The position numbers were made by a program, and so were the translations under genes. Under the pieces are notes generated by a model. That model searched no databases. It saw only the letters and a list, made by a program, of their open reading frames with translations, and was not told the origin of the DNA. Of a DNA stretch of 64,000 nt, positions 1,053 through 60,803 are shown in pieces (positions within the stretch are counted from its first letter, which is position 1; each line of letters begins with the position of its first letter). This DNA is from Stegostoma tigrinum. Lineage: Eukaryota. The stretch covers positions 18,109,140 to 18,173,139 of the forward strand of contig NC_081404.1 of the NCBI RefSeq assembly GCF_030684315.1, in the 5' to 3' direction.

Positions 1053-1672
1053 AACTTACGATTTTTAAAATTGTTTTCAATTTGTCTCTTGACTGCATCT
1101 GTCTGTCGGTTTTTGTGAGGTGGGGGTTGGTGATCAAAGAAGATTTGTATCATTGATATTAAAGAGATTGCCTTGTAGTTTCTGTATTCTGCTAAAGTTA
1201 CATTATTACACAAATTTTACATTTTTAGGTTCCAAGTTGGTGTTGGTTATTTGTAAAGTTTGTTTAGGAAGAATTGAGCAAATTTTGAAAATCATCAAAT
1301 GTTTTAATTTCACTCTGTTGCAAATCCAGCCCAAATCAAGTCTGATTTGGGCTAGCTTGCTATCCCTGTGTCCTAACATCAGGAAAACCTTAAATCACTG
1401 AGTTAATGAATTGTTTGCACATGGAGTTTCTAAGACTATGAAAGAACTACTACATTGGGAAAACATAGTGGATGCTGTTGTACTCAACACGGTGTCAATT
1501 GGACAATTTAATACAGCACTTAACAGTTTTATCTCAAAGATTTACACTTATGTCACATCTGAAAGCATCTCAAATGCAGTGAATACCCTGAGGAACAGTG
1601 ACTGTGTTACAAGCATACCCCATTTAGCTATGATGTCATTAGTTGACCAAAAGCATATGAAGGGTGATGGTA

Positions 1673-1818
1673 TCAGAGATAATGGGAACTGCAGATGCTG
1701 GAGAATCTGAAATAACAAAGTGTGGAGCTGGATGAACACACAGGTCAAGCAGCATCTTAGGAGCTCCCAAGATGCTGTTTGGCCTGCTGTGTTCAGCCAG
1801 CTCCACACTTTGTTATGT
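1673..1818. mobile_element. Palindromic Penelope-derived mini-element, hammerhead centre deleted, 12-bp TSD
   Basis: Inverted arms ataacaaagtgtggagctgg...ccagctccacactttgttat; AGGGTGATGGTA at 1661-1672 and 1819-1830. Confidence 0.8.
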
Positions 1819-2199
1819 AGGGTGATGGTAGTTTGTGTAAAGTGTTAGGTTTTAAATAAATTGTTGCTAACTTATGCCTGTTATCATGCCAATTTACACA
1901 TTGTTATGGCTGGTAAGTTTAGTGCTTTCCTTGAGAGTTGTGGCTTTTTAAGTTTAACAGTTATGACAATTATGGAGAATAATGATGTAATCTTCTAATT
2001 CTGCTTTGTTGAGAATCCAAATCCTACATATGTCAACAAAAATACAGAAGGCAGTATTACTATATGAATGCATCACACAATGAAATACCTGACGAAGATG
2101 AAAAATGAGCCCCTGAAAACCGAACATCTCCCGAAAAATCAGAAAGTGACCCTCAACAAAATCTTGAGGCGTGTTTTTTTGAATATTTTGAATCCATGG

Positions 2200-2760
2200 T
2201 TCAAAAGGGCACTAAACGGGCACCCCCTGCTGTTCTCGTATCACAGTCTTAAACAGGGGACTGAACGGTCTCCTTCAGCTCGTGTTAAAAGATCTAGGAA
2301 ACGTTTCTACATTGAAGGCGCTATCTAAATGCAATTACAATATATAACGATTTTCTTCCCAACTTTGCATTTTATTTACATAAAAGAACCTTGACTTACA
2401 CGGACTGTTCTTCAATAATAACAAATTACAGAATAACCCATTTTCTTTCCGTTTTGGACAAATCCCTCGCAATCTGAAGTAAACTACCCGTTGCTGAAGT
2501 AACTGAAAAGAAAAGCTCACATGACACACTCGGGCGCTCGGTGATGACGCACTTTCACGATCGCGAACAGTGCGCCGCTCTCGTGCTGTCATTTTCAGTT
2601 AAAATCCCGGCTGCCCCTTCACCGAATCGGCGATCATGGCGGTACCGGCTCCTCAGAAACGATTTTACCGGCAGCGTGCTCATTCCAATCCTATGGCGGA
2701 TCATGTCTTTGATTAGTGAGTGGGGGAGGTTTATTGGGTGTAGTCATTCTTAGGTTTCGG
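2200..2760. promoter_or_regulatory. CpG-rich promoter / first-exon region of METTL1
   Basis: Visible CpG enrichment against CpG-poor flanks; TGACGC and TCGCGA motifs at about 2545-2566. Confidence 0.6.
2636..2715 (+). CDS. METTL1: METTL1 coding exon 1
   Basis: atcATGGCG start; [26 protein letters not shown](Y); donor GTGAGT at 2716. Confidence 0.95.
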
Positions 2761-57560: not shown

Positions 57561-58156
57561 ACTTTGTGTTATATTTGCTTTAACTCCCAAGCTAAGAGAA
57601 TTGTATTGCAATTGCCAAAGAGAAACAGACACCGAAGGAATTATCACTATTCTGAAACTTGGTCAGTAGTTTTATTCTGTAAAATGCAACCAAACTGTTC
57701 ATAAAGACAAAATATTTCAAACACCTTGTCATTTTGTTAAATTGAAAGAACAAACATGTATTTCTGCAGTGCCTTTCATATTAAGATATCCCAAAAGGTT
57801 TCACTGTCAATGAGGCACTTCAACAGTCTAGTCACTGTTGCTACAAAAGTGCTATGTCTTGCTAAGCAAGGTTCAACAGATGCCAGAAAACCTCTGATAC
57901 CTTACCCAAGTAGTCATTCACGTGAGATGAGACAGACCATTTGACTTTAGAAGGCATCCGATATTGATGTTTTGTCTTTCCTCTCTAGCTAATAAGCGCT
58001 GAGGAAAATTATAGTGTCATTCTACCTTAGGTAATATTTGCTACTACAGCAGAGGCTTGGGATCAAGCCTAGGACCATCTGATCTATGTAGCTAAATTCC
58101 AAATTGATCACATAAGTTTCACAAGAAAATTGCAAATGAGAAAGTTCACTTTCTTA

Positions 58157-59750
58157 TTCACTCTTGAGATGTGAGCAAAGTTAGCTGGCCAGCATTTTTA
58201 TTGCCCATCTCTAATTGCCCTTGAGAAGGTGGTGATAAGCTGCCTTCTTGAATCACTGCAGTCCACCTGTGGGTTGACCCACAATGCCCTTGGGGGGGGG
58301 GGAGAGTAATTCCAGGGTTTTCACCCACCGACACTGAAGGAACAGTGATGTATTTCCAAGTCAGGATGGTGGGTGGCTTGATCAGGAACTTGAAGGTGGT
58401 AGTGTTTCTGTATATCTGCTGCCCTTGTCCTTCTAATTGGAACTGGTCATGTATTTGGGAGGTACTGGCTACGGATCTTTGCTGAATTTCTATAGTGTAT
58501 CTTTTCGATAGTACACACTGCTGCTCCTGAACGTTGGTGGTGAAAGAAGTGAATGTATGTGAATGAGGGGCTAACCAGGTGGGCTGCTTTGTCCTGGATG
58601 GTGTCAAGCTTCTTGAGTGTTGTTGGAGGTGCACCCATTCAGGCAAGTGGAGAGTATTCCATTACACTCCTGACTTACGCCTTGCAGATGGTGGGCAGAC
58701 TTTGGAGAGTCAGGTGATGAGTTACTCACTGCAATATTCCTAGCATCTGACCTGCTTTTGTAGCCACAATGTTTATGTGGCGAGTCAAGTTGAGTTTCTG
58801 GTCAATGGTAAACCCAAGGATGTTCATTGATCATTACACAGTTGAATGTCAAGGGTTGGTGATTAGATTATTTTTATTGGTGATGGTCATTGCATGAGAT
58901 TTGTGTGGCATGAATGTGACTTGCCACTTATCATTCCCAAGCCTGGATATTGTCCAGATCTTGTTCCATTTGAACATGGACCGCTTCAACATCTGAGCAG
59001 TTGAAAATAGTGCTGAATGTTGTGCAATCATTGGTGAACGTCCCCACTTCTGACGTTATGATGGAGCGAAGGTCATCGATGAAGCAGCTGAAGATGGTCG
59101 GGCACAGGACACTACCCTGACTTATACCTGTGCCAGGTGTGACTCCAACTAGTGGAGAGTTTTCTCCTGATATCCATTGATTCAAATTTTGCTATGGCTC
59201 CTTGATGCCACACTCAGTCAAATGCAGCATTGATGTCAAGGGCTCTCACTCTGACTTCACCTCTGGAATTCAAGTCTTTTGTCCGTATTTGAACCAAGGC
59301 TGTATGAGGTCAGGAGCTGAGTGACCCTGGTGGAACCCAAATTGGGCATCATTGAGCAGTTGTGCTTGATAGCACTGTTACTGACACCTTCCATCACTTT
59401 ACTGATGATCGAGAGTAGACTGATAAAGTGGTAATTGGCCAGGTCGGATTTGTCCTGCTTTTTGTGTATAGGACATACCTGGGCAATTTTCCACTTTGTC
59501 AGGTAGATGCCAGTGTTGTAATTGTGCTGAAAGATCTTGGCAAGGAAAGTGGCAAGTTCTGGAGTACAAGTCTTTAGTACTATTGCTGGAATGTTGTTAG
59601 GGCCCATAGCCTTTACACTATTAAGTGCTTCCATCCACTTTTTGATATCATATGGAGTGATTTGAATTGGTTGAAGACTAGTATCTGTAATAATGGGAGG
59701 AGGCCAAGATGAATCATCCACTTCGGCACTTCTTGCTGGAGATTGAAGAT
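58157..59750 (-). mobile_element. CR1/L2-group LINE RT fragment with 3' tail
   Basis: KAMGPNNIPAIVLKTCTPEL...WKIAQVCPIHKKQDKSDLANYHFISLLSIISKVMEG; ISQGSVLCPTIFSCFIDDL; frameshifted. Confidence 0.85.
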
Positions 59751-60550
59751 TTGGCCCATATTGGTCTGTTAGAAATAGAAGAGGAAACCATCTTTTATAT
59801 CGTTATCATGTGTTACAGATTACTTTATTGCCTACAATTTTCTTTCCTTTTCTCAAAGCTGCTAATTGATATACGCACACAGCAGCCAATTTATGCACAG
59901 AAAGCTCTCACAATGGATACATGATTAGTTCATCTGTTTTTGGTAGTGTTGGTTGAGGAAGGCATGTTGGCTAGGATAAACAGCACCCACAGATATTTTG
60001 TTTTTAAGCCCACAAACGCATGGGGATGTTCATTTAGCACCCCCACTGCAAAGACATCACCTGGAGGTGTCAGCCTAGGCTATAGGCTCAAGTCTCTGCT
60101 GGGAGATCTCATAGAAACCTATAAAATTCTAATGGGACTAGACAAATGCAGAAATAATGTTCCTGATGATGGGAGGATCCAGAACCAGGAGTTGTAGTCT
60201 AAGAATACAGAGTAGACCACAGGATTGAGATGAGAAGTAATTTCTTCACCCAGAGCCTGTGGAATTCAAAAGAAAGCAGTCAAGGCCAAAACATTGTATG
60301 ATTTGACAGAGTTGGATATAGCACTTGAGTTAAAGGGATCAAAAGATAAGGGGTGAAATGGGAAAAGCCTATTGAGGTAGAGAATCAGCCATGATCATAA
60401 ATGAGTGGTGAAACAGGCCCGAAGGGCTTACTACTTTTTTCTGTGTTTCTATGACTCCAACCATGGTCTAATTTTGAAACTTGAATCCTGCATTCAGTTA
60501 AACAATGCTTCTGCTTTCGAAAATATTTCTTGAACAGTTGGAGAGACACT

Positions 60551-60803
60551 GAACAAAAACAAAGTTGCTGGAAAAGCTCAGCAGGTCTGGCAACATCTGT
60601 GATGGAGAAAACAAGAGTTAACGTTTCAGGTCGGGTGACCCTTCCTCACAACTGAACGGTTGAACGCAGTACGAAGAAGGGTCACCCGACCTGAAACGTT
60701 AACTCTTTTTTTTTCCTTCACAGATGTTGCCAGACCTGCTGAGCTTTTCCAGCAACTTTGTTTTTGTTCCTGATTTACGGCATCTGCAGTTCTTTTGTTT
60801 TTA
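60551..60803. mobile_element. Palindromic Penelope mini-element (ggtcac..gacc subfamily)
   Basis: Arms gaacaaaaacaaagttgctgg...gacccttc and gaagggtc...ccagcaactttgtttttgttc, plus the extension gcatctgcagttc. Confidence 0.85.

Follow-up and report, generated by a model that had tools for sequence, protein, structure and literature searches.

Among endonuclease-bearing Penelope-like elements (PLEs), insertions are described, in the accessible text of three papers (PMC3846280, PMC8557442, PMC8969392), which consist of an inverted, 5'-truncated copy along with a ‘tail’ of 30-40 bp and a target-site duplication (TSD). With a lizard PLE, reverse transcription begins at two internal RNA sites with the tail lying between them, in vitro the two strands of the target are each cut and extended, with no need for hammerhead cleavage; the formation of the inverted arm is not modelled in that work (PMC11167929). 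The origin of both the inverted arm and the tail is, indeed, still open in the PLE papers that are cited here. We consider in this light a set of short hairpins found in a 64-kb window of vertebrate DNA (41.7% G+C), the window being the whole stretch that was analysed, i.e., positions 18,109,140 to 18,173,139 of Stegostoma tigrinum contig NC_081404.1. These hairpins are PLE 3' ends in which two arms stand head to head inside of one TSD. Each, we argue, was made in a single insertion by priming from both nicked target strands, a reading to which we would assign a probability of roughly 78%.

Profile searches located approximately 19 PLE 3' ends in the window, whereas a reversed-sequence control gave none, with the family C end found apart from that control run, as a separate family scan. 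Ten of these are two-armed insertions. Counts of two-armed insertions cover the nine that were scored, the tenth (53903-54084) being excluded as neither of its ends is above background for the tail. An earlier note on this DNA had pointed to seven loci as possessing inverted Penelope termini with one arm longer than the other, and both points are borne out: two opposed arms of one PLE terminus are present at all seven coordinates, and an extension of 34-38 nt, which is the tail, is found on exactly one arm at each of them, though partly deleted at 49653. Extending the count to all scored insertions, exactly one arm carries the tail in 9/9, with the tail partial at 16331 and 20192 as well.

The seven hairpins span 146-253 bp, and in six of them the arms are 84-99% identical, that is, 51/56 (1673), 80/95 (12623), 91/92 (27129), 42/46 (49653), 82/93 (57329) and 93/97 (60551). 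In the seventh (20868) most of the stem is gone by deletion, with ~41 nt lost internally from the inverted arm and a stem of ~14 bp remaining. Some variants are private to one insertion while being common to both of its arms (seven columns at 57329, one at 1673). In two-armed copies the tail-less arms are ~54-455 nt long, with 690 nt reached in a single-armed copy, and inverted tail arms range from 23 to ~140 nt.

A TSD of 9-12 bp had been claimed for these loci, which stands in part: at six of the seven a duplication is above chance, as judged against 600 random position pairs, while 60551 is without one. Exact duplications are seen at 1673 (12 bp), 12623 (9 bp), 27129 (12-15 bp), 49653 (11 bp) and 57325 (11 bp), and that at 20868 is 10 bp with one mismatch. 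The weakest accepted score, 8, is reached by 17/600 random pairs and a score of 9 by 3/600. The best repeat at 60551, 9 bp with one mismatch, has a score of 7, which is chance level (48/600). TSDs above chance are found also at 16331, 40727 and 14208, no such TSD was found at 20192..20307, and across insertions the length range is 9-16 bp.

How far each arm reaches bears upon mechanism. The tail-less arm extends further 5' than the tail arm in 7/7 informative insertions and is equal to it in the other two (sign test 0.016); the tail-less arm, that is, always reaches as far or further 5', which is the small addition made here to an already described layout. At 16331, 20192, 20868 and 49653, moreover, neither arm contains the other, with the tail present on one and the further 5' reach present on the other. 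Copying of arm from arm is therefore excluded at these four loci, and both arms must have been copied from RNA. As the two start sites of the lizard PLE flank the tail (PMC11167929), these sites map onto the hairpins as one arm per start site. Inner and outer ends are alike in family A (TTGTTATCT and CCATTATCTC) and in family B, where they are T-rich, with the family C ends A/C-rich; this likeness suggests that one recognition motif may be used twice.

Under two-strand priming, the inner site would be primed by one target strand, giving rise to the tail-less arm, and the outer site by the other, giving rise to the tail arm. Both cDNAs would stop early, with their 3' ends then united by end-joining. 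A more specific version has the same RNA used for both primings, with the polymerase that starts at the outer site trailing on that RNA, displacing the first cDNA, and halting at or before its end; a short run would then yield an inverted tail only, and a full run a near-symmetric hairpin. Polarity, together with the failure of either arm to supply the other, best fits two primings on one RNA, albeit in a small sample from a 64-kb window, and we put this same-RNA version somewhat short of an even bet. Centres fall within 5 nt of symmetry in 5/9 insertions, as do 864 of 362,880 permutations. An earlier count based on aligner-read limits (5/9 within 3 nt, 144 of 362,880) was dropped in favour of hand-corrected limits at 20868, 57329 and 60551.

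The junctions between arms speak to whether these are one-off products or instead copies of something that propagates. The earlier note had offered both possibilities, observing that each copy has a different centre, and within the window all nine scored junctions do differ: with as many as four mismatches allowed, no second occurrence in the window was found for any of nine junction 24-mers, and the arms meet with a 0-8 nt overlap or across a 7-nt filler. In addition, the same end is found behind coding arms at 16331-16807 and 40727-41417, making the hairpins the short extreme of a size continuum of PLE insertions. Unique junctions along with a continuum into coding copies with the same ends thus support the reading of the hairpins as per-insertion products of Penelope truncation plus inversion, rather than as miniature inverted-repeat transposable elements (MITEs) or retrozymes. 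To describe them as a ‘recurrent class’ was an overstatement, the layout being an already published PLE property; the finding is mostly ordinary and is not of a new class. The stubs, furthermore, are likely dead on arrival.

Several observations count against this account, or at least against portions of it. Junction uniqueness rests on nine copies in 64 kb, and the oldest family B hairpins, 20868 and 53903, share similar junctions, 1-3 nt apart. (Counted from the cleavage site, the tail arm in these runs to roughly +7 and +10, and the tail-less arm runs from 5-6 nt before the core; a join precisely at hammerhead stem I was considered for both but did not hold up.) Symmetry at 3 nt is seen in only 3/9 insertions (p 0.048), with the threshold picked post hoc and the arm limits read by hand, and without 12623 it falls to 2/8 within 3 nt (p 0.25) and 4/8 within 5 nt (p 0.021). 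Four single-armed tailed copies, at 3824, 24903-26260, 39566 and 48886, have no tail-less partner, implying that the outer site is usable alone and limiting the polarity rule to two-armed copies. The private variants that are shared by arms could also stem from gene conversion between them. Lastly, the model does not account for the finding that 9/18 arm ends are no more than 11 nt away from where the hammerhead core starts.

A test of junctions in sequencing-run contigs likewise is weak, since contigs break at palindromes and repeats. It employed four of 23 runs, placed on 40600-41500, and cannot reveal RNA ends, circles or copy number. X1 contigs matching this interval numbered 198,524, with no strand-changing joint among the best-supported X1 joints listed, for which counts are lower bounds. 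Over the test as a whole, two of the best 15 of 255 joints changed strand, each a single X5 contig, with a depth of ~200 versus 130,000-240,000 locally (~0.1%). The result is weakly compatible with unique junctions. The largest X1 loose-end cluster among those listed consists of 459 contigs at 40812, one base upstream of the core, beyond which sequence is heterogeneous (agreement 0.37). This cluster and that of the arm ends could mark the 5' end of an RNA, stalling of the polymerase in the C-rich untranslated region (UTR), or divergence among subfamilies.

There are alternatives to two primings on one RNA. Priming could be dual yet employ two separate RNAs, held by a dimeric enzyme, with arms truncating independently. 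The protein of the Anolis PLE is a predicted dimer, and both strands are extended (PMC11167929); unique junctions and overlapping arms would follow without strand displacement. We nevertheless consider two RNAs to be rather unlikely, as neither the polarity (7/7) nor the symmetric excess (5/9) is predicted, few though the copies are, nor by itself does such priming demand that exactly one arm bear a tail. Alternatively, a cDNA or antisense template could turn at a short palindrome and copy itself, i.e., fold-back or self-priming, as proposed by Arkhipova et al. 2013 in the available portion of that article (PMC3846280). A palindromic centre, as is found at 1673 (2-nt overlap) and at 12623 (8 bp), would suit this, as would near-symmetric centres and the sharing of private variants between arms. 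At the four loci named above, however, neither arm could have templated the other, the junctions at 27129, 57329 and 60551 are not palindromic overlaps, and fold-back from the tail arm predicts a tail arm that is further 5', the opposite of what is seen in 7/7, so that we view fold-back as improbable.

Other alternatives would have the hairpins moving as units. At least one form of hairpin might have a fixed junction and make up a non-autonomous family that the PLE enzyme re-mobilises in trans. Non-autonomous PLE derivatives are known from what could be seen of PMC8557442, a hairpin read-through transcript would keep both start sites, arm ends and X1 loose ends cluster at the hammerhead start, and the two old family B hairpins are there as candidates. 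Those two copies, though, differ by 1-3 nt at the junction and in internal deletions, the sequence past 40812 is heterogeneous, no dominant strand-switch joint is among those listed, and every scored junction is unique in the window, all of which makes a fixed-junction family highly improbable. More remote still is a retrozyme-like element replicating via a self-cleaved monomer or circular RNA: a minimal hammerhead is present, and retrozymes derive from PLE ends as far as stated in the accessible part of bioRxiv 10.64898/2026.07.22.740005, but same-strand tandem or adjacent hammerhead copies are absent among profile matches in the window, a hairpin's two cores are on opposite strands, cores are stem-buried (in four hairpins), decayed in 4/7 and absent in 1/7, and no scored arm starts at the cleavage site. 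As for MITEs moved by a DNA transposase, to which shortness, lack of coding sequence, inverted repeats and TSDs would all conform, the tail renders the ends asymmetric, TSDs (9-16 bp), element lengths (146-253 bp) and centres vary, and the ends run on into reverse transcriptase (RT) plus GIY-YIG coding sequence; we find this hardly credible at all. The MITE-like or retrozyme-like class that the earlier note had entertained is accordingly not supported.

The connection to autonomous elements is made by the coding copies. The 40727-41417 insertion (-), like the arm at 16352-16807, carries a GIY-YIG C-terminus immediately upstream of the shared end. At 40727-41417, 84/87 amino acids (97%) of it are identical to P0001, a shark RT-endonuclease, and the coding fragment 41150-41413 is 97% identical to a protein labelled Rhincodon typus and 94% identical to one labelled Stegostoma tigrinum. 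P0001 possesses RT motifs, a CX4CxxC linker and GIY-YIG; in Pfam its GIY-YIG domain is above the cut-off and RVT_1 is under it. The join of RT with GIY-YIG is visible in P0001 and P0032, and the window contains fragments only. The copy at 40709..41435 ties family A ends to an autonomous PLE, and that at 24903..26260 ties family B to a PLE open reading frame (ORF). Family C is represented by one copy without a linked ORF in the window, and its placement among PLEs is based upon anatomy and hammerhead. The CX2-5CxxC linker is found in P0001, P0002 and P0032 and in the window only in decayed form, at 25072; such a linker between RT and endonuclease is a trait of Neptune that is common to Nematis too, per the accessible text of PMC8557442. 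A fragment of a PLE reverse transcriptase, likewise decayed and sharing 52% identity with P0001, occupies 63239-63799 (+), with no 3' end detected.

A hammerhead core had also been placed at the centre of each hairpin. This is right in kind, the motif being a minimal PLE hammerhead, and intact cores exist in both arms at 27129 and in one of the arms at 49653. At 12623, 20868, 57329 and 60551, on the other hand, cores are decayed, and at 1673 the core is absent, with both arms stopping 9 nt downstream of the cleavage site. Among the 14 arms scored, the core elements CUGANGA, GAAA and NUH are intact in five, all family A, and decayed in the other nine. Minimal-hammerhead traits that are present include an extra nucleotide at 9/10.1, a G10.1-C11.1 pair and a palindromic 15.2-16.2, with G-U replacing G-C at 10.1-11.1 in 57459 and in family B 60551, 14205 and 39570. 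Stem I varies along with the subfamily, being 2 bp in A, 3 in A2, 4-6 in better-kept B copies, and 5 in C. Within four hairpins (12623, 27129, 57329 and 60551) the hammerhead is buried within a long stem.

All three of the stem II types that had been distinguished are present in the window, and stem II pairing is 5/5 in 11/14 arms scored and 4/5 in the other 3/14. Two-sided changes, which had been taken to look like covariation, come almost entirely from a single comparison, that of family C with A/B, in which three pairs differ, and one further pair is in 39570; this is a pattern over three or four lineages, without a covariation statistic. An automatic alignment misplaced family C, and there are too few independent lineages for covariation. 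An Rfam scan of the window returned no family at gathering score, and E-value scans of two hairpins returned only hairpin-driven microRNA matches below cut-off along with one hammerhead III match (E 0.71). Free folding of eight isolated hammerhead stretches gave no significant z-score, with only stem II forming, in some. The hammerhead would, under two-strand priming, be a passenger, carried along from the element's end.

Coordinates of the PLE-derived features of the window, with two-armed insertions listed first and coordinates as extents in the window
Feature	Coordinates	Strand	Details
E1, hairpin, family A	1661..1830		Inverted tail arm 1676-1764; tail-less arm 1763-1816; 2-nt overlap; 12-bp TSD, 1661-1672 / 1819-1830
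E2, hairpin, family C, sole copy in window	12614..12846		Inverted tail arm 12623-12752; tail-less arm to 12837; central 8-bp palindrome; stem II GTTAC/GTAAC; 5-bp stem I; both cores decayed; 3' end 81% A+C; 9-bp TSD
Long-arm two-armed insertion	16317..16820	+	23-nt inverted tail piece (16331-16353) and 455-bp sense arm; 2-nt overlap; in the sense arm (16352-16807), intact hammerhead core (16724), C/T-rich UTR and coding end of the GIY-YIG C-terminus; 14-bp TSD
Two-armed insertion, family A	20192..20307	-	Inverted tail piece 20281-20307; tail-less arm begins within core
E3, hairpin, family B, old	20858..21024	+	Inverted tail arm 20868-20920, with internal deletion; tail-less arm 20921-21014; decayed core
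E4, hairpin, family A, youngest	27117..27364		An intact minimal hammerhead core on each strand (27264 +, 27255 -); left arm tailed
E5, hairpin, family A	49642..49826		Short tail arm 49653-49714 (tail partly deleted); tail-less arm with intact core (49723)
Two-armed insertion, family B	53903..54084		Decayed beyond scoring of tail or TSD
E6, hairpin, subfamily A2	57314..57570		Cores decayed; tail on left arm; 11-bp TSD
E7, hairpin, family B	60551..60803		Tail on right arm; central 7-nt filler; cores decayed
Single-armed 5'-truncated PLE, 690 bp	40709..41435	-	GIY-YIG C-terminus; C/T-rich UTR; intact core (40811); tail-less end; 16-bp TSD
Decayed PLE coding remnant with family B end	24903..26260	+	Remnant 24903-25422; end 25755-25820; tail resumes at 26214-26260 past ~390-bp insertion
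Single family B end with tail	3824..3940	-	Inverted partner not found
Decayed family B end	4592..4666	+	No tail detected
Decayed family B end, between METTL1-like exons	6442..6522	+	No tail detected
Single tail-less family B end	14208..14302	+	11-bp direct repeat, one mismatch
Single tail-less family A end	22306..22388	+	No TSD above chance
Single family B end with tail	39566..39700	+	Inverted partner not found
Single family A end with tail	48886..48975	+	Inverted partner not found

The window contains additional features. Exons of a METTL1/TrmB-like tRNA methyltransferase extend over 5723-9999 (+), with motifs at 5723, 5828, 9317, 9564 and 9913 and with Pfam Methyltransf_4 on one exon. At 55026-55550 (+) there is a long lysine methyltransferase exon (Pfam Methyltransf_16), likely that of METTL21B/EEF1AKMT3, presumably the neighbour of METTL1. 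An inverted repeat at 18997-20061 has arms of 112 nt that are 84% complementary, 841 nt apart and rich in (TG)n/(GA)n. At 59257-59802 (-) a reading frame resembles, by eye, a LINE reverse-transcriptase fragment, with no Pfam match.

With approximately 19 PLE ends in 64 kb, ten of them two-armed, the hairpins are readily confused with MITEs or with microRNA precursors, and indeed they match many microRNA models below cut-off. Their transcription, were it to occur, would give rise to long double-stranded RNA. Arm polarity and centre symmetry also are cheap, countable readouts for separating dual priming on one RNA, priming on two RNAs, and fold-back. A tentative extension, which we hold to be less likely than not, is that the stubs constitute a fossil record of Penelope integration, with one RNA primed twice, the tail arm never outrunning the tail-less arm, and an often shared stop just upstream of the hammerhead, perhaps the RNA 5' end. 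Were that so, then the tail, the inverted pseudo-long terminal repeat (pLTR) and the palindromes would be explained by one step, and the very many copies of shark genomes would offer material for testing.

Relative to published complex PLE insertions, as described in the accessible portions of the papers cited at the outset, the likeness consists of a head-to-head arm, a tail at one end, palindromes at some junctions, and heavy 5' truncation. TSDs there are 8-10 bp, versus 9-16 bp in the shark window, and arms in the window often are too short to retain coding sequence whereas those published insertions are described as longer. Arm-length polarity was not found in those same portions, though supplementary insertion figures may already show it. 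The Poseidon element of Anolis carolinensis (PMC11167929) is similar in having two tail-separated RT starts ~60-100 nt past the hammerhead and in the extension of both target strands, and family C shares with it a similar A/C-rich end (81% A+C); families A and B differ from it, their start sites being T-rich and the protein to which they are linked, the Neptune-like P0001, having a CX4CxxC linker.

The hammerheads resemble the minimal type I PLE hammerheads of PMC4209133, so far as its available text describes these, in core, in the extra nucleotide at 9/10.1, in G10.1-C11.1, in the palindromic 15.2-16.2 and in lacking a helix III. Helix I is 4-5 bp in the published motif versus 2-3 bp in A/A2 and 4-6 in B and C. 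The same text describes, for Schistosoma, hammerhead pairs 100-700 bp apart on opposite strands as well as scattered single motifs from truncated PLEs. Non-LTR retrozymes, too, are short, non-coding, hammerhead-bearing and PLE-derived (PMC7229834 and bioRxiv 10.64898/2026.07.22.740005, in part). Retrozymes as portrayed there, however, form head-to-tail tandems in which the hammerheads share a strand, and their linear and circular RNAs are abundant, whereas the loci of the window are head-to-head and dispersed.

Beyond the window, a metagenome scan with a family A 23-mer gave no matches, as did a scan of viral contigs with a degenerate pattern. The degenerate pattern yielded 33 metagenome loci, none of them similar to the window elements by blastn and several of them chance, with PLE protein similarity in three (L006, L015 and L023); all 33 were left out of consideration of covariation because they had been selected on stem II. 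One of these (L015 318-1237) encodes a stretch of PLE RT plus GIY-YIG, and a hammerhead motif follows downstream of it at 120-145, on the coding strand. An unrelated hammerhead-bearing repeat (L014 360-649, the same as L016 and L026) repeats the anatomy of the window's hairpins, with a hairpin, a 34-nt tail and a 9-13 bp direct repeat, which speaks for the account given here. At L011 1423-2138 one hammerhead-bearing hairpin is nested in another with the same anatomy; both this and the L014 hairpin lie in AT-rich DNA that is unrelated to the window.

A search of the literature, with Repbase and Dfam outside of its scope, found no paper on short shark PLE hairpins or on PLE twin priming. In the twin priming of L1 elements, two primings from two target nicks give rise to an inverted segment with junction microhomology, which is similar to what is proposed for the hairpins of the window. 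With L1 the two segments are without overlap and therefore form no long palindrome, whereas arms in the window overlap by up to ~100 nt.

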